From NCBI GenBank assembly GCA_016199805.1, contig JACQGC010000004.1, positions 19,816-83,815 on the forward strand: a DNA stretch of 64,000 nt, written 5' to 3'. Source of the stretch: Candidatus Nomurabacteria bacterium (lineage in GTDB: Bacteria > Patescibacteriota > Minisyncoccia > Phycocordibacterales > UBA9973). A program made the position numbers and the translations under genes. The first letter of the stretch is position 1, and the number at the start of each line of letters is the position of its first letter. Below are positions 4,766-63,378 of this stretch, in pieces. The notes beneath the pieces are model-generated. The model was not told the origin of the DNA. It saw only the letters and a program-made list of their open reading frames with translations, and did not search any database.

Positions 4766-4844
4766 CAACCCCCTAAATCCCCCTTGTCAGGGGGACTCCC
4801 CAATTTTCCATCCCCTGATAAGGGGAGGGTTAGGGAGGGGTTGT
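4766..4844. repeat. GC-rich palindromic element with terminal inverted repeats CAACCCC/GGGGTTG and two internal hairpins
   Basis: TCCCCC-TTGTCA-GGGGGA and TCCCCT-GATA-AGGGGA hairpins; GGTTAGGGAGGGGTTG tail resembles other family members. Confidence 0.6.
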
Positions 4845-6294: not shown

Positions 6295-7371
6295 TTACAC
6301 AATATTGACTTCGGGCTTTAATTCCAGCCCAAATTTTTCTTTCACCGAGGCTATGATTTTATTGGCCAATTCGATGATTTCTTCACCTTTTGCGCCACCG
6401 TGGTTTACCAAAACCAAGGCTTGCTTGTCGTGCACGCCGACATTCCCCATCCTTCTCCCCTTCCAACCGCATTGCTCTATCAGCCATCCGGCTGGAATTT
6501 TGTACTGTATTTCCCCCCTCTCCTTCGCAAGGAGAGGGGTTGGGGGTGAGGTCATATTTTCTTCTTCAAAGTGTGGAATTTCCGGATATTTTTTTTTGAG
6601 TATTTCCAATTCTGTTTTCGTCACAAAAACATTTTTAAAAAAGCTTCCGGCGTTGCCTATTATTTTCGGGTCGGGTAGTTTGCTTCTGCGTATCTCTGCC
6701 ACAGCGTCGCTGATATTTTTAAGTGTTGTTGTTTTGTTGGTTTTTTCCAAATAATCAGACAGAATCTTGTAAGAAACGTTTGGCTTTGGTGTCTTGCTTA
6801 ATTTTAAAGTCACTGCCGAAATAAAATATTTTCCTTTCAATTTATTTTTAAAAACACTATCCCTATAGCCAAGTTCGCATTCTTCACAGCTAAAAATTTT
6901 TTTCTCTCCGCTCTCAATCTCAAAAGTTTCCACACTAAAAAGAGTATCTTTGAGTTCGGCTCCGTAGGCGCCAATGTTTTGCATCGGCGCCGCACCGACT
7001 GTACCCGGAATGAGAGACAAGTTTTCAATTCCCCAATATCCTTTATCTACGGCAAACAACACAAGACCATGCCAGCTTTCACCGCCCATCGCTCTAATAT
7101 AAACACACTCTTTCCCGACCCCTGTCGGGACCCCGACTTTGGTCGGGGCTATACCTTTTACTTTATTTAAAATAACTATACCGTCGAAATCTTTTGTAAA
7201 AAGAACATTACTTCCACCACCCAAAAATATTTTTTTGTTATTTTTAAATTCAGGCGTCGCCAAAAGTTCTTTCAAGTCTTCTTCTGAATTTAACTCGACA
7301 AAAAACTTGGCGTTTACAGAAATACCGAAAGTGTTTAATTTAAGCAGATTGTAATTATTTTCTAATATCAT
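6295..7371 (-). CDS. murB: UDP-N-acetylenolpyruvoylglucosamine reductase MurB
   Basis: LGGGSNVLF, GIENLSLIPGTVGAAPMQNIGAYG and GNAGSFFKN motifs; start taken at MILENNYN (the ORF-track N-terminus overlaps the upstream gene); contains an in-frame palindromic insertion. Confidence 0.9.
   Translation of the reverse strand: MILENNYNLLKLNTFGISVNAKFFVELNSEEDLKELLATPEFKNNKKIFLGGGSNVLFTKDFDGIVILNKVKGIAPTKVGVPTGVGKECVYIRAMGGESWHGLVLFAVDKGYWGIENLSLIPGTVGAAPMQNIGAYGAELKDTLFSVETFEIESGEKKIFSCEECELGYRDSVFKNKLKGKYFISAVTLKLSKTPKPNVSYKILSDYLEKTNKTTTLKNISDAVAEIRRSKLPDPKIIGNAGSFFKNVFVTKTELEILKKKYPEIPHFEEENMTSPPTPLLAKERGEIQYKIPAGWLIEQCGWKGRRMGNVGVHDKQALVLVNHGGAKGEEIIELANKIIASVKEKFGLELKPEVNIV
6511..6553. repeat. 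palindromic element copy inserted in-frame in murB
   Basis: cccccctctcc-ttcgcaa-ggagagggg followed by ttgggggtgaggt; translated in murB as MTSPPTPLLAKERGEI. Confidence 0.65.
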
Positions 7372-7372
7372 A

Positions 7373-8647
7373 TCAATGTCCCAATGTAAAAAACATCGCC
7401 ACTGCCGCTGCCCCCATAAGCACAAAAGTACCCCAGACTAGTATGTTTGATACATTACCACTCTTGTGTTCACCCATGATTTTTTCGTTCCTGGCTATCT
7501 TGCCGATTATAAAGATAAGTGGAACGGCGGCTACGCCATTGAATACAGCGGTATAAACCAAGGCTTTAATCGGGTCTATGCCAATGAAATTTATCATCAA
7601 GCCGACAATGGTGGCGATAGTGATGACTCCATAAAATCCATGAGCTTTTTTTAATTTCAAATTCAAACTTTCTTTCCAATTTAAAGTTTCGGCGACGGCA
7701 TAAGAAGCGGAAGCGGAAAGCACCGGCACGGCCAGGAGTCCGAGCCCGATGACTCCGACGGCAAAAATCAACTTGGCTAAAAATCCCGCATATGGAAATG
7801 TATGCACCAAGGGCTCCAGGGCTTTGGCCGCGTCCGCGGCGGTGGCGATATTGGTTATGCCATGAGTGTTTAGGACTGTGGCAGCAACGACGATGATACA
7901 CCATGTGGCTATTTCCGAAGACAGCATCCCGACAAAATTATCAATTCTAAGATTTTTGAGAAAAGATTTTGTAATATGTGTCTCGCCGTGTTTTAAGAGG
8001 TGCTTAGCTCGTTCTTCTTCCACTTCTTCGGACGCTTGCCAAAAAAACATATATGGGGAAATAGTCGTTCCGAAGACACCAGTAATGATAAAAAGAAAAG
8101 CAAAACTCAATTCAATATGCGGAATGAAGGTGGCTTTTAATATCGTCAACCAGGGTTGTTTGACTAAAAATAAAGTCAAAGGATAAGCGAGCAAAGAAAA
8201 AGCCAGCCATTTCAAAATCTTGGCATATTTTTTATAGGAGATAAATATTTCCAGTGACAAAATCAGGGCGGTAAAAAAAAGTGTCAGCACTGTCAGGTTG
8301 ATTGGCAAAACAAGCTGCGCGGCGGCCGCCATCGCCCCCAAATCTGCTCCGATATTGATCGTATTGGCTAAAACAATAAGGACGACTGCCGCATAAAGCA
8401 TTTTCTTGCTGTAATTTTCTTTAATCACGGCGGCAATTCCTTTGCCAGTTACCGCCCCGATTCTGGCGCAAGCCTCCTGAATGGCGGTCATAAACGGCAA
8501 TAGCAATAAAGCTGTCCAGAGTTGCCCATAACCAAATTGCGAACCGGTCTGCGAATAAGTGGCGATGCCCGAAGGGTCATCATCCGCCGCGCCGGTAATA
8601 ATCCCCGGCCCCAGTTTTTTCCAAAAGCTTTTTCTCATATATTTCAT
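7373..8647 (-). CDS. NRAMP-family divalent metal cation transporter (MntH-like)
   Basis: GPGIITGAADDDPSGIATYSQ N-terminal signature resembling the Nramp GPGxLxxxAxxDPGN motif; 11-12 TM helices. Confidence 0.65.
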   Translation of the reverse strand: MKYMRKSFWKKLGPGIITGAADDDPSGIATYSQTGSQFGYGQLWTALLLLPFMTAIQEACARIGAVTGKGIAAVIKENYSKKMLYAAVVLIVLANTINIGADLGAMAAAAQLVLPINLTVLTLFFTALILSLEIFISYKKYAKILKWLAFSLLAYPLTLFLVKQPWLTILKATFIPHIELSFAFLFIITGVFGTTISPYMFFWQASEEVEEERAKHLLKHGETHITKSFLKNLRIDNFVGMLSSEIATWCIIVVAATVLNTHGITNIATAADAAKALEPLVHTFPYAGFLAKLIFAVGVIGLGLLAVPVLSASASYAVAETLNWKESLNLKLKKAHGFYGVITIATIVGLMINFIGIDPIKALVYTAVFNGVAAVPLIFIIGKIARNEKIMGEHKSGNVSNILVWGTFVLMGAAAVAMFFTLGH

Positions 8648-9639
8648 TTTAGCATTTTCTGCAATTTATATGCATTCCCATGTTTCAACATCCCCAAATA
8701 AGATTGAATCGTTGCTGGTTTCTGGCTATTTTTCACATTCTTAAGCATTCTCCTTTCCGTGCTAGTCCGCAAAACTCTATGCTCAGGAAAATGTACCCAG
8801 CCAAGAAAATCCACACCAGAAGCAATGGTTTTAATATAAACTTTATCTGGGTGCATTTGTAATTTTAATTTGTTTTCCAAAAATTCTTCCATTTTTTCTA
8901 ACACATTTTCTAAATACTTTTTGTCTTCACTCAAAACAACAAAATCATCAGCATATCGTATGTAATATTTCACTTTCAATTCTCTTTTTGCAAACTGGTC
9001 AAATTCATTCATATAGATATTTACTAAAAGTTGAGAAGTTAAATTACCAAGCGGTAGACCTTTTTGCATATTTACGCTATCGCGCATATATGCATCTGTG
9101 TAAAAACTGTCTATCACTTGTGAAAGTAGCCATAAAATATATATGTCAAAGACCGTCTTTGACAATATTCCTTTTAAGATTTGATGATCAATATTCGCAA
9201 AGAATTTTCGGATGTCGCATTTTAATACAAGGCAAGACCTTGTACTGTTTTTGGAAACTTTAAAAATATAGTCTTGAAATCTATTTATTGCTTTATGGGT
9301 GCCTTTGTTTACCCTGCAGGAATACGAATCATTTATAAATTTGGAGTCAAAATATTCATACAGTTCTTGGTAAATTAAATGGTGAAGCAATCTGTCTCGT
9401 ACTGTAGCTTTATGGATTATTCTTGGTTTGGGGTCAGAAATATTGAAAGCTGTGTAACCTCCGTGAGTATATGTTTTGTTTTTTAAATCATTATGTAGAT
9501 CGAGAATATTATCCATCAACTTAGCTTGAAATAGAATCACGTCTTTCCTATCTTTTTTATCATGTAAAAATTCCTGCCAAGCTTTGAGCAGTTTTTCTAC
9601 AGTTATGATATTATCGTAAGTATGCATAAATTGTTTCAT
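8644..9639 (-). CDS. DGR-type reverse transcriptase
   Basis: RT motifs DIRKFFANIDH, LPLGNLTSQLLVNIY (DGR-specific GxxxSQ motif 4), YADDFVV and FLGW thumb; no maturase or endonuclease domains; TR/VR pair adjacent. Confidence 0.85.
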   Translation of the reverse strand: MKQFMHTYDNIITVEKLLKAWQEFLHDKKDRKDVILFQAKLMDNILDLHNDLKNKTYTHGGYTAFNISDPKPRIIHKATVRDRLLHHLIYQELYEYFDSKFINDSYSCRVNKGTHKAINRFQDYIFKVSKNSTRSCLVLKCDIRKFFANIDHQILKGILSKTVFDIYILWLLSQVIDSFYTDAYMRDSVNMQKGLPLGNLTSQLLVNIYMNEFDQFAKRELKVKYYIRYADDFVVLSEDKKYLENVLEKMEEFLENKLKLQMHPDKVYIKTIASGVDFLGWVHFPEHRVLRTSTERRMLKNVKNSQKPATIQSYLGMLKHGNAYKLQKMLK

Positions 9640-9748
9640 ATTTCTCGGACCCCCCCCCGCAGCGCCTTCAGCGCTTTTAAAAACAAAAACCGCCTACTCT
9701 CTTTGGTTTAACATATATAACGATTTTCCGAAAGCGCATAGATACACC

Positions 9749-10006
9749 TTGGGTGGAAAGATTGAAGATTATTTCCTCGGGTTGTTGGAAAACATTTTCA
9801 TTTCTATTTATCTACCGCCGGAAACTAAAATTCCCCGACTTATTATCGCAATTTCTAAACTTGATGGAGTTAAGTTTTTTCTACAAATCGCTTGGGAAAA
9901 TAAATGTATTAGTAATGAAAAATATTCCCAGCTTTCAGAAAAATTAGATGAAATTGGAAAAATGCTTGGTGGTTGGAAAAAAGGCCTAGAAAAGAAAACT
10001 CCCTGA
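9749..10006 (+). CDS. Avd-like four-helix-bundle protein (short or truncated; TTG start)
   Basis: C-terminus SEKLDEIGKMLGGWKKGLEKK and LPPETK segment match the TIGR02436/Avd family pattern (..FPKDE.. / ..EEVSKMLNGL..); about 30 aa shorter than typical and on the strand opposite the RT. Confidence 0.4.
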   Translation: MGGKIEDYFLGLLENIFISIYLPPETKIPRLIIAISKLDGVKFFLQIAWENKCISNEKYSQLSEKLDEIGKMLGGWKKGLEKKTP

Positions 10007-10030
10007 ACTTAGTCAGGGAGAAACATTCTT

Positions 10031-10147
10031 AGTTTCGGAACGACGATTCGATGAGCGTACTTGGCATTCCAGACATTGCTGTTCTCAAGCGGATTGACGT
10101 TCAAGTTCAGACGACCATCGTCATACACGTTGACGTTGGCAACGAAG
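10031..10147 (-). repeat. DGR template repeat (TR), 117 nt
   Basis: Near-identical to 10523-10639; all 18 mismatches fall on TR adenines (minus strand); AAC-rich. Confidence 0.85.
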
Positions 10148-10453
10148 ATTTGTAGGATAAGCCATCTATTCCACCGCCAGCCTGAGCATAACTTAATATC
10201 AAAGACTGTGCTGTATATTATTTGAGAGCGTAAAACTCTTCCAACTCACCCCACCAACTTTTATGTTTTTTTGTTTTAAAAAAGAATTCACTCTTCCACG
10301 AGACATATCCGGCGAAATTCTCAAATTGATTTTTAAGCAATCATGTCCCAAAGCCTTGACCGTGAGCATTTCCAGATTGCGGATTTAGTATATATTAAAA
10401 TTTAAAAAGATAAAGGGTCAAAGGGAAAAAGTTTCAAAGTGACAAATGAAAAA

Positions 10454-10502
10454 CCGTTCCTCCAGGTCGGCTTTTCACCTTACTGATGGAACGGTTTGAT
10501 GT
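10454..10502 (-). promoter_or_regulatory. inverted repeat/hairpin immediately downstream of VR (candidate DGR target-recognition structure)
   Basis: ccgttcctccagg ... ctgatggaacgg (10 of 12 complementary) with a ~19-nt loop, starting ~20 nt after the target stop codon. Confidence 0.5.
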
Positions 10503-10518
10503 TGAAACAGAAACAAAG

Positions 10519-11199
10519 TTACAGTTGCGGAACGACGACCCGATGAGCGCACCTGGCACCCCAGACATTGCTGAACTCAAGCGGATCGACGCCCAAGTCC
10601 AGACGACCATCGCCACACACGCTGACGCCGGCAACGAAGAAGCCGCCGTTTTCCCCCTCAAACAGGAAGAAGGTACCGTAGCCCTCTGCACGAAGATACT
10701 CGCGGTTGCGAGGATCTCGACAGAATGCCACGATTTGCGACTCCTGCCAGCAGAGACGTTTCAGATTCTCGCCGAAGCCTCCGAAGACCTGTGCGTAAGT
10801 ACCGTCTTTGATCATGTAGTAGACGGCTAGGACGGTTTTTTTCGTTGCCTTGCAGACTCCACGCTTCGCGGCTCCGTAGATGCCCGCATTGAAAACGTCA
10901 TTTGCTTCTGCCAGCGTCTCCTTCCCGTCGGTTTCCGCGAGCTCAATTGTGCGATCGGCAAACAAACGCTTGAGCCGCCCGACCACGTTCTCCGCGAGCT
11001 CGGCGAGAATAGTCTTCACCGTAGCTTTCACCACTGCCGCGATTTTATCACCCTGAGTCAATACCCGCTGAAAGTTATCGCCGTGGAGCACCCCGTTGGC
11101 GGAGAGCTCGATTACTGCCTCGTCTACTACCTTGCGGGTCGCAGACGCCACAACCGTCATCAACTGCTCTTTTCTTTCGAGTGTAATCATGCTGGGCAT
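10519..11199 (-). CDS. DGR target protein with C-terminal variable region (CLec/FGE-like fold inferred)
   Basis: VR occupies the last ~39 codons (..GYGTFFLFEGENGGFFVAGVSVCGDGRLDLGVDPLEFSNVWGARCAHRVVVPQL); higher GC than flanking genes. Confidence 0.8.
   Translation of the reverse strand: MPSMITLERKEQLMTVVASATRKVVDEAVIELSANGVLHGDNFQRVLTQGDKIAAVVKATVKTILAELAENVVGRLKRLFADRTIELAETDGKETLAEANDVFNAGIYGAAKRGVCKATKKTVLAVYYMIKDGTYAQVFGGFGENLKRLCWQESQIVAFCRDPRNREYLRAEGYGTFFLFEGENGGFFVAGVSVCGDGRLDLGVDPLEFSNVWGARCAHRVVVPQL
10523..10639 (-). repeat. DGR variable repeat (VR) at the 3' end of the target gene
   Basis: 117-nt match to the TR with 18 substitutions, exclusively at TR-adenine positions (A to G 15, A to T 2, A to C 1); ends 2 nt before the stop codon. 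Confidence 0.85.
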
Positions 11200-25922: not shown

Positions 25923-26717
25923 TTATTTTATCACTTTTTCAAACTCCTTCGGAATTTTAGATTCTATTTTTACTGTTTTGCCTTTCATATCTTTAAATTC
26001 TATGGATTTGGCATGCAGAAACATGCGGATTCCTTTTTTTTCCTCCCCTGCGAAGGGGAGGCGTAGGAGGGGTGAACTTTTTGGATTATAAAGCGCATCT
26101 CCCGCCACCGGATGATTTAAAAATTTCATATGCACGCGAATTTGATGTGTCCGACCGGTTTTTGGTTTTAGTTCCAAATAGGTAAATTTCCTCCCCTCCT
26201 TATTGAGGAGGGGCTTCGGGGTGGTGATTTCTAATCTCTTGAGTACTTTGTATTCCGTAATCGCCTCCCGCATCTCTCCCCTAGCGCCGCGACCTGCCAA
26301 GCGGCGGCGAAAATCCGAAGGACTGCGGCCAATGGGTTTGTTTATCACTCCGCGGTCTTCTTTTACCCAACCGTCTACAATAGCTACATAAGTTTTTTTA
26401 ATATCTCTGCCCATAAATTGATTTTTTAAAAACTCATGCGCTTTTTGGTTTTTTGCCAAAAGCATTACTCCGGAAGTTCCGCGGTCCAGTCTGTGAACAA
26501 TGCCCGGCCGGTCTATTTCCCCCATCGGCTCCCCTACACCTTTCATTTTCGGATAATTTTTGATTATCCAACTAGTGATAAAAGTTTCTTTTTTTTTGCC
26601 ATCAGCGCCTGCCCCGTAGTGAGCTTGCTCTACTGCGGGGTGCACAGAAATGCCCCAAGGCTTTTCAATGGCCAAAATGTCTTTATCTTCGTATAAAACT
26701 TTGATTTTCATATGCAT
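25923..26717 (-). CDS. RluA-family pseudouridine synthase
   Basis: PGIVHRLDRGTSGVMLLAKN catalytic motif; carries two in-frame palindromic-element insertions. Confidence 0.85.
   Translation of the reverse strand: MHMKIKVLYEDKDILAIEKPWGISVHPAVEQAHYGAGADGKKKETFITSWIIKNYPKMKGVGEPMGEIDRPGIVHRLDRGTSGVMLLAKNQKAHEFLKNQFMGRDIKKTYVAIVDGWVKEDRGVINKPIGRSPSDFRRRLAGRGARGEMREAITEYKVLKRLEITTPKPLLNKEGRKFTYLELKPKTGRTHQIRVHMKFLNHPVAGDALYNPKSSPLLRLPFAGEEKKGIRMFLHAKSIEFKDMKGKTVKIESKIPKEFEKVIK
26038..26076. repeat. palindromic element copy inserted in-frame in the RluA-family gene
   Basis: cctcccct-gcga-aggggagg followed by aggaggggtgaac; encodes ..SSPLLRLPFAGEEKKG.. Confidence 0.6.
26189..26228. repeat. second palindromic element copy inserted in-frame in the RluA-family gene
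   Basis: cccctcct-tattg-aggagggg followed by cttcggggtggtga; encodes ..TPKPLLNKEGRKF.. Confidence 0.6.
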
Positions 26718-31992: not shown

Positions 31993-32337
31993 TTATTTTG
32001 CCCGTGCGCCAGCCGGAATTTCATTATTTGGCTCAAGTAAAGAAAATTTACCGTCTTCTGTAGAAACGGCTAGTATCATCCCCTGGCTTTCAATTCCCCG
32101 AATCATCCTGGGTTCCAAATTGGCGACAAACATGCATTTTTTACCCACTAAAACGGAGCAATCGGGAAAATACAAAGAAATTCCGGAAACAATTGTTCGT
32201 GGAGTGGCTTCACCCAAATCAACCGAGAGTTTCAAAAGCTTGTCTGTCTCCGGAACTTTTTCCGCCGACAAAATCTTCCCCACGGCGATATCTATTTTTT
32301 TAAAATCTTCTAATGTAATCATAAATACATTATACAC
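31993..32337 (-). CDS. tRNA-binding domain protein (CsaA/EMAP-like)
   Basis: DIAVGKILSAEKVPETDKLLKLSVDLGE...IVSGIS typical OB-fold tRNA-binding domain. Confidence 0.65.
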   Translation of the reverse strand: MYNVFMITLEDFKKIDIAVGKILSAEKVPETDKLLKLSVDLGEATPRTIVSGISLYFPDCSVLVGKKCMFVANLEPRMIRGIESQGMILAVSTEDGKFSLLEPNNEIPAGARAK

Positions 32338-32406
32338 CTCACCCCTTTCCCCTCTCCATTTTCTTAAAATGGAGAGGGGTGGCTCGCTTGCGAGACGGGG
32401 TGAGGT
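32336..32406. repeat. full-length intergenic palindromic element (reference copy)
   Basis: ACCTCACCCC-ttt-CCCCTCTCCATTTT-ctta-AAAATGGAGAGGGG-tgg-CTCGC-ttg-CGAG-ac-GGGGTGAGGT; nested inverted repeats. Confidence 0.7.
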
Positions 32407-32843
32407 TAATGGTTATTAATTTTATCAAGATAACGTTGCAATATCAAAGCCGCCGCGGAGGCGTCTATACGGCCGGACTTTATTTGCTTCACCCGGCTAT
32501 GCGAGTGGGAAGGACTCAAATCATTTTTGCTATTCCCTGCTTTGCGCGCTTCTACTGAAGTCAAAAATTCTTTTTGTTTATGAATGGGTAAATTGAATTT
32601 CTCCTGCAACTCCAAAATAAAAACTTCAATCCGTCCCGACAAAGCATTCAACTTCCCAGAAAAATCGATTGATTCCCCGATGACTATTTCTTTTATATTT
32701 TCTTTTTTGATTATCTCGGCAAACTTTTTAAGAACGTTTGCATCGTTCAAAACAATCTCCTTAGGAAAAGCCAAGGTGTGATTTTCGTCCGAAATAGCCA
32801 CCCCAATCCGCTTTGTGCCGTAATCAATGCCTAAAAATCTCAT
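32406..32843 (-). CDS. ruvX: Holliday junction resolvase-like protein RuvX/YqgF
   Basis: MRFLGIDYGTKRIGVAISD N-terminus, ~145 aa. Confidence 0.85.
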   Translation of the reverse strand: MRFLGIDYGTKRIGVAISDENHTLAFPKEIVLNDANVLKKFAEIIKKENIKEIVIGESIDFSGKLNALSGRIEVFILELQEKFNLPIHKQKEFLTSVEARKAGNSKNDLSPSHSHSRVKQIKSGRIDASAAALILQRYLDKINNH

Positions 32844-50394: not shown

Positions 50395-50482
50395 TTTCCT
50401 CTCCTTTCCATGAGATGGTTAGGGTGAGGTTGTTCCCCTCGCCAGTACTATGGAGAGGGGTTGGGGGTGAGGTTTTAGTGAT
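50395..50482. repeat. composite intergenic palindromic element
   Basis: cctctcc..ggttagggtgaggttg..cccctc-gccagtactatg-gagagggg-ttgggggtgaggtttt. Confidence 0.6.
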
Positions 50483-54598: not shown

Positions 54599-54640
54599 GA
54601 ACCTCACCCCTGCCCCTCTCCTTGTTAAGGAGAGGGGTTT
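54599..54640. repeat. intergenic palindromic element (left-arm variant)
   Basis: aacctcacccc-tg-cccctctcctt-gtta-aggagagggg-tt. Confidence 0.65.
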
Positions 54641-55229: not shown

Positions 55230-55266
55230 CTTCCCTCTCATTCCAGGAGAGGGCTAGGGTGAGGTT
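55230..55266. repeat. intergenic palindromic element (right-arm variant)
   Basis: ccctctc-attccag-gagaggg-ctagggtgaggtt. Confidence 0.6.
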
Positions 55267-59429: not shown

Positions 59430-60701
59430 CTAAATCAAGAAGTTTCTATTCCTTAGATTTTTGTGATACGCTATCGCGAATCTGTGCGCTTCGCTGTTTG
59501 ATAGCAGGATTTCTCTTTTATATTTTTTAGTAAATTCGCTCGCTCCGAGAATGTCTTTGGGTTTGTGTTTTTCGTCTTTCAATACTGCCACCACGGGGAT
59601 TTTTAGGCCAAGTTTTTTCAAGACAGACATTCCTGCGTGCAGCTGCGCCACTCCGCCATCCACAACAATCAGGTTCGGATACTGCCACTCCGTATGCGCC
59701 AGGCGCCTTTCCAGCACTTCTGTGAGCGCGCCCGTGTCGTTGGCATTATTTTGCGTTCTGATTTTGAATTTTTTATATTCATTCTTTGCCACTTCCCCAT
59801 CTTCTACCACTGTCATCACGCCCACCATATTTTTTCCTCCCATGTGCGCTATGTCATAAGATTCTATTCTAGCGAATGAAACAGGAAAATTTTTATCCGT
59901 GTGGGACCCACCTCGTACTCGAGGAAGGGAGGAGCGGGAAAAATTTTCCTGTTTCAGGAGCGCCACATCATTTATGTGCTGCAAGGCAAACATTTGCCTT
60001 TTTATTTCTCCCGCTTTTTCAAATTCACGAGCCTTCGCATAATCTTTCATTTCTTTTTTTAGATTTTGCAAAATTTGCTGTTTTTTGCCGGAAAAAAATA
60101 ATTTTATATTCCGAATATTCTGCATATACAGTTTTCTGTCTTTTAAATCCGGCACCAGATTTATTTGTTTGTAAAATTCTAGATAATTTTTACTTTTGTC
60201 ATCCAGGAAGGGAAAAATCCGGCGAATAATTTTCATCGCCTCGCGAAGCTGTGGCCCACTGGTATAAGGCCCATATATTTTGTTAAACACCGAGTGTTTA
60301 ACATTTCTACCTCGCACAACAATTACTCTAGGTAATTCCTCCCCGCCTGCTCCCGAACCATCGTGAGGGCGGGCAGGTTTGGTTATGCAAACATAATTAA
60401 AACTTTTATCATCTTTTTCCCTGGTGTTGTAATAAGGTTGATGTTTCTTAATCAGTTGCGCCTCTAAAATGAGGGCTTCGAGAACACTATCCGTCTCTTG
60501 CCAATCTATTTTATCCGCCTTGTAAACCATATCCACTAAAAGCGGACCCCTGGTCTCAATCAAATCTTTTGAAAAATAACTTTTTGTGCGGTCTTTGAGT
60601 GAAGTGGCTTTGCCGATATAGAGAATTTGCTTCTTGTGCTTAAAGAAATAAACCCCTGGCTTGTCTGGAAGTTTTGATTTTTTATGATATTTGATATCCA
60701 T
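59430..60701 (-). CDS. uvrC: excinuclease ABC subunit C (UvrC), compact form
   Basis: GIY-YIG N-terminus LPDKPGVYFF..ILYIGKATSLKDRTKSYF; position adjacent to uvrA. Confidence 0.7.
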   Translation of the reverse strand: MDIKYHKKSKLPDKPGVYFFKHKKQILYIGKATSLKDRTKSYFSKDLIETRGPLLVDMVYKADKIDWQETDSVLEALILEAQLIKKHQPYYNTREKDDKSFNYVCITKPARPHDGSGAGGEELPRVIVVRGRNVKHSVFNKIYGPYTSGPQLREAMKIIRRIFPFLDDKSKNYLEFYKQINLVPDLKDRKLYMQNIRNIKLFFSGKKQQILQNLKKEMKDYAKAREFEKAGEIKRQMFALQHINDVALLKQENFSRSSLPRVRGGSHTDKNFPVSFARIESYDIAHMGGKNMVGVMTVVEDGEVAKNEYKKFKIRTQNNANDTGALTEVLERRLAHTEWQYPNLIVVDGGVAQLHAGMSVLKKLGLKIPVVAVLKDEKHKPKDILGASEFTKKYKREILLSNSEAHRFAIAYHKNLRNRNFLI

Positions 60702-60702
60702 T

Positions 60703-63378
60703 TTATTTTCTTAGTACTTTTTTGAGATATTTGCCAGTATAACTTTTTGCATTGTTTGCCACCTCCTCCGGTGTGCCCTTAGCCACGATATTTCCGCCAT
60801 TCACTCCCCCTTCCGGCCCTATATCTATTATATAATCCGAACTCTTCACGATGTCCAGGTTGTGTTCTATCAGCACCACAGTGTTGCCGTGCGACACGAG
60901 CTTGTTTAAAACCTCCAGAAGTTTGTGCACATCATCATAGTGCAAGCCAACCGTCGGCTCGTCTAAAAGATAAATCGTTTTCTCGGTGTGCGGACGATAC
61001 AGCTCGCTAGATATTTTTACGCGTTGCGCTTCTCCTCCAGAGAGAGTCGTAGCAGATTGGCCGAGCTCCACATAACCCAAGCCCACATCGAGCAAGGTTT
61101 GCAGCCGGTCGGAAACCGCCGGAATATCTTTAAAAAAGGTCAGGCCTTCTTCCACAGTCATATGCAACACTTCATAAATATTTTTCTTTTTGTATTTTAT
61201 CGTCAGAGTTTCCTTATCAAATCTTTTTCCGCCACACACGTCGCAGGTTACATAAACGGTTGGTAAGAAATGCATCTCCACAGCAATTTCTCCGTTGCCT
61301 TCGCAGGCCTCACAGCGTCCGCCTTTTACGTTGAAAGAAAAGCGGTTGGATTTCCAGCCACGTAGCCGCGCTTCTTCAGTTGTAGCGAAAAGATCACGAA
61401 TGTGGGTGAAAGCGCCTGTGTAAGTCGCAATGTTTGAACGCGGCGTGCGGCCGATGGGGCTCTGGTCTATCAAAATCACCCGGGAAATATATTCCGTGCC
61501 GGAAAAAGACGAACAATTAAAAACTTGTGCCGTGCGATATTTGCGTTCCAGTCGCCCCTGGAGATTTTTATAAAGAATTTCGTACATGAACGAACTCTTG
61601 CCCGAACCGGAAACACCGGTGATGGAGGTCATCACGCCGAGGGGCACTTCCACATTCATATTGTTTATATTGAAAACTTTTCCACCCGTGACCCTTAGCA
61701 CCCCTTTCGCCTGCCGTCTCTTTTTGGGAATTTCTATTTTTATTTCATCACGCAGGTAAGCCAGGGTTCTCGAATTGTTTGTATTTTTCTTGGCAGTCAA
61801 TAAATCTTCCAAATAGCCCGACACAATTACTTCTCCGCCGTGCACTCCCGCCTTGGGACCGATGTCCACTATAAAATCCGAAGCGTAAATAGTGTCTTCG
61901 TCATGCTCCACGATTATTATCGTATTTCCCAAATCACGCAGGTTTTGTAAGGTTTTTATCAGGCGGTCGTTGTCCCGTTGATGTAGGCCAATCGTCGGTT
62001 CATCCAGCACATACAATGCGCCTACGAGCCTGGAGCCGAGTTGTGAAGCCAGGCGAATGCGTTGCGCCTCCCCGCCAGAGAGCGTATTGGCTTTACGGGA
62101 GAGTTGTAAATAGTCCAAACCGACATCGAGCATGAACTGCAAGCGCGCTTCTATTTCTTTGACGATAGGCACGGAAATTTCTTTCTCTTGTTCGGAAAGT
62201 TTTAGATTTTTGAAAAAATCATGCGCGTCTTTGATGGAAAGAGAAGATAAATCCAGAATATTTATTTTTTTATGCGACGCTTCTAAAAATACGTTCAGCG
62301 CCTCGGGTCGTAAACGCGCGCCATGACATGCCTCGCAGGGTTCATCGCCCATGAAATATTTCGAACCGAGGCCGTTACAGGCCGGGCAAGCGCCGTAAGG
62401 AGAATTGAAGGAAAATAATCTTGGCTCCACTTCCGGAAAAGAAAAACCGTCGTTCTTGCAGGCAAACTTGGCGGACATGATAAATTCATCATCACCTATT
62501 TTTATAGCCACTAGGCCGTCGGACTCAATCAAGGCCCGCTCTATGGCTTCCGCCAGACGCATCCGGCTGCCGTCTTTGTTGTCGGAAAATTCATGCACCG
62601 CAAAATGATCCACCAAAATATCTATGTTGTGGGCTTTGTTTTTGGAAAGAGTGATTTGCTCGCGTAATTTTTTCATCACTCCATCCAGACGGATTTCAGC
62701 AAAACCTTTGCCAAGTAAATCATAAAGCAATTGGTAATATTCCCCTTTGCGTCCGCGGACCACTGGAGAAAAAATACTGATTTCGGTATTATCCCATTCC
62801 ACGCCCATGACTTTGCGCTTGCCCTCTCCTCCTTTCGGAGGAGGAGTGCCCTTTAGGGCGAGGTGGTTCTTTTTAGAATTACCACCCCCTGCCCCCTCCT
62901 TAATCAAGGAGGGGAGGGTAAAATCTTTCACTTTCCCCAACACAAAATTCAAAATTTCTTCATTAGAAAGTTTTTTGATTTCCTCGCCACAAAGCGGACA
63001 GTGCGGGTGCCCGATGCGGGCATACATCACCCGTAGGTAATCATAAATCTCGGTAATCGTCGCCACTGTGGATCGCGGGTTATTGGAGCGGGATTTTTGG
63101 TCAATGGAAATCGCCGGCGATAAACCGGTGATTTCATCCACGTCCGGCTTGGGCATTTGATTCAAAAATTGCCGCGCGTAAGAAGACAGAGACTCCACAT
63201 ATCGCCTCTGCCCTTCGGCAAAAATGGTATCAAAAGCGAGCGAACTCTTTCCGGACCCGGAAACCCCGGTGATGACCACCATTTTATTGCGTGGCATCTC
63301 CACATCAATATTCTTCAAATTGTGTGTCCTAGCCCCTTTTATTGTTATTTTATCTATGTTTTTATCAAGTTTTGTCAT
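60703..63378 (-). CDS. uvrA: excinuclease ABC subunit A (UvrA)
   Basis: Duplicated ABC ATPase with GVSGSGKSS Walker A motifs, zinc fingers ([21 protein letters not shown]), 891 aa; carries an in-frame palindromic insertion. Confidence 0.95.
62821..62918. repeat. composite palindromic element inserted in-frame in uvrA
   Basis: ctctcctcc-tttc-ggaggagg .. tagggcgaggtgg .. ccccctcctt-aatc-aaggagggg; encodes [31 protein letters not shown]. Confidence 0.65.

Follow-up and report, generated by a model that had tools for sequence, protein, structure and literature searches.

The murB gene of a Candidatus Nomurabacteria bacterium (assembly GCA_016199805.1, contig JACQGC010000004.1) very probably carries a copy of the BoxC/PIT/TMECO repeat that was inserted in-frame into a tolerant surface loop of the MurB_C domain. 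The element is a 38-nucleotide (nt) class II intrastrand triplex motif in which a pyrimidine arm and a purine arm are followed by a third block that mirrors the latter, and it is assigned to this family by its architecture, block sequence, loop lengths and copy number. Both the element and the in-frame insertion of repeats have been described before; the point of novelty is the intragenic, in-frame location. The analysis covers a 64-kb stretch of the contig (positions 19,816 to 83,815 of the forward strand, hereafter the window), and all window results and coordinates refer to this stretch.

The murB frame is open from 6295 to 7425 on the minus strand, with the likely start at 7371, and its translation includes ..PHFEEENMTSPPTPLLAKERGEIQYKIPAGW... 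The 358-aa product is 100% identical to the NCBI protein annotated as UDP-N-acetylmuramate dehydrogenase of Candidatus Nomurabacteria bacterium, which is encoded on a 214-kb contig. It contains the Pfam domains FAD_binding_4 and MurB_C and matches solved MurB structures at E = 2e-75. In an alignment of 30 homologs, R170 (YRDS), S243 (GSFF) and E354 (PEV), which we take to be the counterparts of the catalytic Arg159, Ser229 and Glu325 of Escherichia coli MurB, are invariant. Given these matches and the invariance of the catalytic-type residues, the gene looks functional. An original prediction, made from the DNA of the window, held that a palindromic element lies within the MurB frame and leaves it intact, and this is borne out: the gene is a single uninterrupted minus-strand open reading frame (ORF), in which the segment reads ENMTSPPTPLLAKERGEIQYK, as predicted.

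The sequence at 6513-6552 is CCCCCCTCTCCTTCGCAAGGAGAGGGGTTGGGGGTGAGGT, with the C-run beginning at 6513 and the final T of ...GTGAGGT at 6552; the palindrome that had been placed at 6511-6553 is present, with each boundary 1-2 nt away from the coordinate given. The coding strand is the C-rich strand of the element, which encodes residues T274-G286 (TSPPTPLLAKERG). The block GGGGTGAGGT, when read 3'->5', mirrors the purine arm AGGAGAGGGG, and the trailing 'ttgggggtgaggt' is that third block and no spacer. According to the three-block finder, all 10 of the 10 triads are allowed (G.G-C, A.A-T or T.A-T), i.e., the element is a perfect 10-triad motif. As DNA, the murB hairpin has an energy of -11.9/-12.3 kcal/mol (z = -3.1/-3.6 relative to shuffled sequence), and GGGGTGAGGT occurs in the window 10 times at up to one mismatch, compared to 2.0 expected occurrences. 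A search for the generic three-block geometry, with perfect stems of at least 7 nt, yields seven perfect triplex motifs in the window and none across the 60 Markov-1 simulations that served as the control. By hairpin energy, excess of the tail block and motif count alike, the murB element is more than a chance arrangement. Direct reading shows that five of its six reading frames are open, the only stop being in the frame that runs through G-GTG-AGG / GG-TGA.

Comparison with orthologs indicates that the murB segment is an insertion. In the alignment with the Pseudomonas aeruginosa MurB structure (PDB 4jay), the 15 residues 'enmtspptpllaker' face a gap of the same length, and the segment is missing from every solved MurB structure. 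Among the 120 closest MurB homologs (P0001-P0120, 61-75% identity), proteins of 336-337 aa are the most frequent, and the loop in these proteins reads ..P.FEE-(D/E)G-(I/V)(I/V)-KIPAGWLIEQCGWKG. The closest segment-free homolog, P0004 (locus L001), is 75% identical to the window protein, and the gene order Nramp-murB-FKBP-SIMPL-secE-nusG-L11 is common to the window gene, P0004 and the carrier P0002. The empty site in L001/P0004 reads TTT GAA GAG GAA/GGA ATA ATT AAA (FEEE/GIIK, with the slash at the insertion point), and the filled site in the window reads ..GAA AAT ATG ACC TCA CCC CCA ACC CCT CTC CTT GCG AAG GAG AGG GGG GAA ATA CAG TAC AAA. The call of an insertion is made because this syntenic ortholog and all the solved structures are without the segment. 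The predicted addition of a Pro-rich peptide to MurB is upheld by the same comparisons, and none of the element-free orthologs among the homologs compared contains this peptide. The insert is also present in independent assemblies (L003 from JGI, L004 from Logan and L085 from ENA/NCBI) and so is no artifact. In the AlphaFold2 model of the protein (mean pLDDT, the predicted confidence score, 78.7), values below 50 are found only at residues 272-286 and in two 3-residue stretches; residues 268-289 are without secondary structure, with a helix (252-261) before and a strand (290-292) after them. The model predicts a disordered loop in the C-terminal MurB_C domain, with 13-16 residues added, compatible with the surface loop that the original prediction had expected.

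The motif (Bachellier et al.) was first named BoxC, then PIT (potential intrastrand triplex; Hoyne & Maher 2000, 2002) and later 'TMECO' (Holder et al. 2015, PMC4666352). The TMECO pattern, CCCTCNCCC-N3-6-GGGNGAGGG-N3-GGGNGAGGG, has 3610 copies in 262 proteobacterial genomes; the 23 copies of E. coli K-12 are 'always located intergenically' (PMC4666352). The copies from the window and from relatives align block for block with the K-12 TMECO sequences (PMC4666352, Table 1). The blocks are nearly alike (CCCTCTCC(C/T), (G/A)GGAGAGGG and GGGTGAGG(G/T)); loop 1 of the murB copy, with its 5 nt, is within the published range of 3-6 nt, and loop 2 is 3 nt long, with TTG here and TTA in type A. As in the published family, there are multiple copies, the others being intergenic, and inverted-pair or double-tail forms such as the one at 32336-32406. 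The differences are of detail, host and location: the murB stems comprise 10 triads, against 9 in the published motif, in a register displaced by one position and with the extra triad at the other end; the triad beside loop 1 is T-A.T, not C-G.G, in all three blocks; the host belongs to Patescibacteria, whereas the published TMECO count is for proteobacteria; and the murB copy and at least three other window copies are in-frame in genes, in contrast to the intergenic copies of E. coli K-12. Compared to the literal TMECO consensus, the murB copy matches at 8 of 9 positions in each block, the same triad deviating every time, so that the strict regular expression fails but the architecture is retained; the consensus is approached more closely by the 55233 copy, by that in L087 and by those from other phyla. 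The copy number in the 64 kb is five for this sequence type and, with all types counted, the seven perfect motifs mentioned above.

A scan for the exact tail+hairpin pattern, with one genome per species, identifies at least 120 stretches across many phyla; among the matches listed are Planctomycetota, Chloroflexota, Cyanobacteria, Bacteroidota, Verrucomicrobiota, Alpha-, Beta- and Gammaproteobacteria, Actinobacteria and others. Of 20 cross-phylum copies at low-GC loci, for which ORF calls can be trusted, 19 are outside long ORFs, in agreement with the published intergenic picture. In other phyla, tandem arrays of the motif occur within longer repeats (loci L117 61-251, L105 233-755, L136 2785-3069 and L123), e.g., with a 78-nt period in a Bacteroidales metagenome-assembled genome and with periods of ~110-190 nt, and a conserved ..GGCCGACCGAGGTGTC.. 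extension, in Pseudomonas; the motif can be part of larger composite repeats. An Rfam scan of the window at gathering thresholds detects tRNAs only, and a permissive scan of three element copies finds no meaningful family. A BLAST search of E. coli genomes with the 42-nt element gives only two weak matches (E = 2-7), the query being too short for that database, and is not used as evidence. In the open-access literature, we found no paper on the motif inside coding sequences or in Patescibacteria, and nothing relevant on palindromic or in-frame elements in Patescibacteria or the candidate phyla radiation (CPR).

Four further places in the window share the hairpin arms (CCCTCTCC/GGAGAGGG) and the flanking block GGGGTGAGGT (Table 1), so that the original view of the element as a repeat with family copies elsewhere in the window, mostly intergenic, is correct. 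The 32336-32406 copy lies between two minus-strand genes, one of which is ruvX (32406..32843), and directly adjoins the ruvX stop codon. At 55233-55265, loop 2 (CTA) supplies the TAG stop codon of the amidase gene and the third block supplies its last codons (..PTSP*); hence this element reshaped the C-terminus of the amidase. Among the seven perfect motifs of the window, four are genic: one in murB, two in the gene of an RluD-like pseudouridine synthase (25923..26717, minus strand) and one in uvrA. In the alignment with PDB entries, solved RluD-like homologs show a 13-aa gap opposite 'ittpkpllnkegr', the peptide of the 26193-26225 motif; the 26042-26073 motif lies in a variable region of the same protein, and its status as an insertion is unsettled. 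UvrA (ORF 60703-63378, minus strand) has ~45 extra residues relative to the solved structures, which include the peptide of its motif. These residues (window 62850-62930) separate the first ATP-binding region from the UvrB-binding domain, and a second Gly/Pro-rich stretch follows the motif peptide. In related Paceibacteria, in-frame motifs are found in tig (trigger factor; L085 6726-6764), where the copy reads ..TPSPSQGEGAGGEV.. / ..GGTPSPSQGEGAGGEVKE.. from the G-rich strand, and in tsaE (L088 1327-1359). Genic copies occur in both orientations, with the G-rich strand coding in uvrA and tig. The variants differ in arm sequence, yet each retains a matching mirror block; that the arms and the mirror block change together is expected if the three-block geometry, and not merely the sequence, is maintained.

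Table 1. Coordinates, in the window, of murB, its triplex motif, related motifs and neighboring features
Feature	Position	Strand	Sequence or remark
murB (UDP-N-acetylmuramate dehydrogenase)	6295..7371	-	358 aa, intact ORF
Extra loop relative to empty orthologs	6508..6558	-	~16 codons, roughly N272-E287
Class II intrastrand triplex motif (BoxC/PIT/TMECO-type)	6515..6552	+ (G-rich strand)	38 nt, in-frame in murB
Pyrimidine arm of murB element	6515-6524		CCCCTCTCCT
Loop 1 of murB element	6525-6529		TCGCA, 5 nt
Purine arm of murB element	6530-6539		AGGAGAGGGG
Loop 2 of murB element	6540-6542		TTG, 3 nt
Mirror third block of murB element	6543-6552		GGGGTGAGGT
Second in-frame GC-rich insert in murB	7114..7148	-	tandem double hairpin CCCGAC-CCCT-GTCGGG / CCCCGAC-TTTG-GTCGGGG, encodes ..APTKVGVPTGVGK..
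Short intergenic variant motif	4768..4795	-	TCCCCCT/AGGGGGA/AGGGGGT
Second variant motif, RluD-like gene	26042..26073	+	CCTCCCCT/AGGGGAGG/GGAGGGGT, encodes ..SSPLLRLPFAGEE..
Variant triplex motif, RluD-like gene	26193..26225	+	CCCCTCCT/AGGAGGGG/GGGGTGGT, in-frame, encodes ..TTPKPLLNKEGR..
Intergenic copy, tail block on both sides	32336..32406	.	ACCTCACCCC...GGGGTGAGGT; long hairpin, -29.1 kcal/mol, z -9.3
Two tandem intergenic copies	50395..50473	+	one degenerate, one near-intact (CCCCTCGCC-AGTACTAT-GGAGAGGGG-TTG-GGGGTGAGGT)
Intergenic perfect 10-triad copy upstream of ruvA	54601..54637	-	
Copy between convergent ruvA and Amidase_3 genes	55233..55265	+	
Variant motif in uvrA	62880..62914	-	CCCCTCCTT/AAGGAGGGG/GGGGTGGTA, in-frame, G-rich strand = coding
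RVT_1 reverse transcriptase	8644-9639	-	
Template repeat	10031-10148		118 nt
Variable repeat	10523-10640		3' end of ORF 10519-11199

The MurB loop that holds the element contains some insert in 54 of the 120 homologs: a peptide derived from the triplex motif in 20, P.DA.ALAG.D in 13, NGSKASV in 11, LPAQAG in three, NPVR...SNG in two and other inserts in five. The triplex-derived peptides appear in differing registers (TSPPAPLLVKERGE; TSPQPSP.RRG; DLTP.PSP.KGEG), with at least two reading registers and junction types among the 20 carriers. In L087/P0072, GAA and GGA are separated by exactly the 33-nt motif (9+3+9+3+9), without any additional bases or a duplicated target. The tail block is duplicated in the 45-48-nt versions of L086 and L088, and the window, L003 and L085 share a form followed by ..EIQY. 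The frame is kept in every carrier, with insert lengths of 33, 39+, 45 and 48 nt, and all 20 copies in this loop have the same orientation. In a rough neighbor-joining tree, the carriers are interspersed with empty sequences, with at least 13 state changes for 20 carriers, and the closest relatives are among those without the element in murB. Given this interspersion, insertion into the loop has occurred more than once, probably with losses as well. Such gain and loss fits the local sequence instability to which the motif has been tied in E. coli (PMC4666352).

Three further insert types checked as DNA are also GC-rich hairpins, e.g., AACGGAAGC-AAG-GCTTCCGTT, an exact 21-nt palindrome, and three other MurB loops likewise take inserts from other hairpin families, one of them being the 7114-7148 site. 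Altogether, four MurB loops (query positions ~79-85, ~210, ~270-290 and ~302) are hot spots for short GC-rich hairpin inserts, and the same family can occupy two of them (LSAQAG/LPAQAG;.ADAKALAGK/P.DA.ALAG.D); in addition, a recurrent 7-aa insert, 'P(R/E)(Q/K)GGAS', follows EQCG in 17 homologs. The hot spots may reflect either an insertion preference or simply the few positions at which additional residues are tolerated by MurB. A preference for polypurine tracts as targets, an idea prompted by the empty murB site, GAAGAGGAAGGAATAA, was rejected, the flanks of 13 sites averaging only 0.48 / 0.45 purine.

Under the favored explanation, the inserted unit would be the bare three-block motif of ~33-38 nt (a pyrimidine and a purine arm with a loop between them, then a 3-nt loop and the mirror purine/T block), which would enter without target-site duplication by a trans-acting or replication/repair-linked route; the copying could involve either a Y1 transposase (RAYT/IS200-type) or a template switch during replication or repair. 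The murB gene stays intact because five of the six element frames are open and the length of the element plus junction is a multiple of three. Translation of the C-rich strand would yield a Pro/Leu/charged, disordered peptide (TSPPTPLLAKERG) that MurB tolerates. This peptide would be a passenger, neutral or slightly deleterious rather than adaptive, and such genic insertions may persist through weak purifying selection in a lineage with a reduced genome, by analogy with what has been argued for the Rickettsia palindromic elements (RPEs).

Several observations weigh against this explanation or parts of it. TMECO sites have no association with transposases or integrases, and no mobilizing enzyme is known (PMC4666352). 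The count of gains and losses comes from the rough tree mentioned above. The filled site of the window exceeds the empty one by 16 codons, compared to a 38-nt motif, which leaves ~10 nt at the junction (..EIQY) over. Translation of the segment is presumed from the intact frame alone. Finally, a comparison of the three carriers that share a junction shows synonymous codons within the element to be identical in 27 of 31 cases, compared to ~55% in the rest of murB (p = 0.002 for one pair). Such an excess fits poorly with a purely neutral passenger and could reflect constraint at the nucleotide level, recent or independent insertion, or homogenization.

The co-variation of the three blocks and the excess synonymous conservation are the grounds for a bolder proposal, namely that the BoxC/PIT motif of Paceibacteria is actively mobile as a bare 33-38-nt unit that enters without duplicating its target, with rapid gain and precise loss in permissive loops of essential genes, and that its triplex geometry is directly selected. 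We regard this proposal as tentative and, on present evidence, unlikely.

A related possibility, which appears rather improbable, is that the element is a non-autonomous transposable element, similar to repetitive extragenic palindromic (REP) sequences and REPINs or to PATEs, that is inserted as a single strand without target duplication by a Y1 transposase (of the RAYT or IS200/IS605 TnpA type) acting in trans. The architecture of a hairpin with a conserved flanking block, the single clean insertion without target-site duplication, the several dispersed copies and the differing junctions in one loop would all suit such an element. However, besides the lack of transposases or integrases near TMECO sites in the published survey (PMC4666352), the flanks of 107 cross-phylum copies and the local copies show no conserved target motif, and the GTAG head that defines REPs is absent. 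No transposase is found among the window ORFs scanned against Pfam, a scan of 10 ORFs only, and no genome-wide Y1/RAYT search was made.

It is decidedly improbable that the genic copies are selected for acting as nucleic acid, with a triplex or hairpin that pauses replication, transcription or translation or tunes mRNA stability, the peptide being a by-product. Such a role would account for the unusual synonymous conservation, for the retention of the mirror block in variants whose three blocks change together and for the shared orientation of all 20 copies in the murB loop; moreover, the isolated strand of the E. coli motif, the only oligonucleotide for which a triplex has been demonstrated, folds stably in vitro, and DNA polymerase is blocked in vitro by PIT elements (PMC4666352). 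On the other hand, the E. coli motif gives no dimethyl sulfate (DMS) footprint in vivo, has no promoter or terminator activity and does not affect RNA polymerase, and purine-motif triplexes do not form in RNA, while the pyrimidine motif needs acid (PMC4666352). Furthermore, close relatives, including the closest, are without the element in murB, and other genes carry it in both orientations.

The presence of a GC-rich hairpin inside an A/T-rich coding sequence brings to mind the 'byp' elements of Magnusiomyces mitochondria and gene 60 of phage T4, such that the 39 nt might be cut out of the mRNA or skipped by the ribosome and remain untranslated. This is hardly credible: the segment contains no stop codons and the frame is kept at every one of the insert lengths seen in carriers, the split genes examined in L085 are without any element, and the proteins annotated in independent assemblies include the segment. 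As for an ordinary lineage-specific expansion of the loop by local indels unrelated to repeats, the length of this loop does vary across MurB proteins, but the idea is contradicted by the data, the DNA being a perfect copy, 38 nt long, of a repeat that the window also has between genes and that recurs across phyla, and the peptides of relatives being the same DNA in other registers (TSPQPSP.RRG, LTP.PSP.KGEG).

The original prediction likened the element to the RPEs; the likeness holds for the in-frame behavior only. RPEs are long palindromes of ~95-150 bp that are confined to Rickettsia (Ogata et al. 2000, 2002, via PMC10969869 and PMC2267715). In both cases, a repeat occurs in-frame in unrelated housekeeping genes of a bacterium with a reduced genome, with intergenic copies as well, and adds a peptide at sites compatible with the fold, here in murB, the RluD-like gene and uvrA, plus tig and tsaE in relatives. 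The elements described here differ in that they are 33-38 nt long, are present in many phyla and have the three-block triplex motif. With RPEs compared by description, the length (38 nt for the murB element), architecture, distribution and BoxC identity set the murB element apart, and membership in the RPE family is very unlikely.

Like REP/BIME sequences and the RAYT-mobilized REPINs, the motif is a short (20-40 nt), GC-rich, dispersed palindrome that occurs singly or in inverted pairs. REPs, however, are extragenic by definition and have the conserved GTAG head, whereas the murB element is genic and has ACCTCACCCC / GGGGTGAGGT as its flanking block; REPs are also species-specific, in contrast to a triplex motif that is near-identical across phyla, and no link to RAYT is known for BoxC. 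The GC clusters and double-hairpin elements of fungal mitochondria are likewise GC-rich hairpins in A/T-rich genomes that can be inserted in-frame. The Cod-2 repeats of Corynebacterium diphtheriae (PMC2267715) are similar in being tiny structured repeats within various coding sequences, in differing frames. Both the Cod-2 and the mitochondrial elements differ in their unrelated sequences and hosts, and no third mirror block has been described for either.

BoxC/PIT/TMECO is among the most widely distributed short repeats of bacteria, and the published view is that of an intergenic element unlinked to mobility genes. Genic copies in conserved, syntenic, essential genes give exact empty and filled sites, which intergenic copies cannot, and these sites would define the inserted unit as the three blocks only, without target duplication, and with repeated hits and losses in one protein loop. 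As far as checked, the combination of a triplex motif, essential genes of the CPR, recurrent hits in one loop and clean footprints is new. A CPR lineage thus appears to remodel the surface loops of housekeeping proteins (MurB, UvrA, the RluD-like synthase, trigger factor and TsaE) with several families of GC-rich hairpins, which parallels the RPE story in Rickettsia with much smaller elements. This is relevant for the annotation and structure-based comparison of CPR proteins and for the weak selection that may let repeats enter coding sequence. Should the proposal of active mobility be correct, these sites would provide, for the first time, clean footprints of the insertion of a cross-phylum repeat the spread of which has been unexplained since the 1990s, and would point to a mechanism that recognizes the folded single strand and not terminal inverted repeats.

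The window murB contains a second GC-rich insert in-frame, the double hairpin at 7114-7148 (-16.4 kcal/mol, z -6.4), which is not present in P0004 and P0002 and is carried by 17 of the 120 homologs. It was considered as a multi-copy family of the window, and this was rejected because the matches to CCCGAC..GTCGGG are only the murB copy and one terminator-like hairpin. In the uvrC-like ORF 59430-60701 (minus strand), a GC-rich hairpin at 60333-60383 (-21.2 kcal/mol) encodes ..KPARPHDGSGAGGE.., a peptide of the same type as the 'KPARNAS..HSDAGGN' inserts in another MurB loop of relatives. In L085 (1913-3443 and 12623-13464), the RNase Y and SIMPL genes are each represented by two ORFs, probably due to frameshifts or sequencing errors; breakage of these genes by an out-of-frame element, a possible sign of bypassing or pseudogenization, was rejected, there being no repeat at the breaks.

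Directly upstream of Nramp-murB, a diversity-generating retroelement is located at 8644-11199. A link between the retroelement and the triplex motif was considered, and no evidence for it was found. The template and variable repeats differ almost only at template A positions (AA>GG, A>G, AA>TT), and genes for the reverse transcriptase and bAvd are found at the same position in the relatives L001, L002, L088 and L090.

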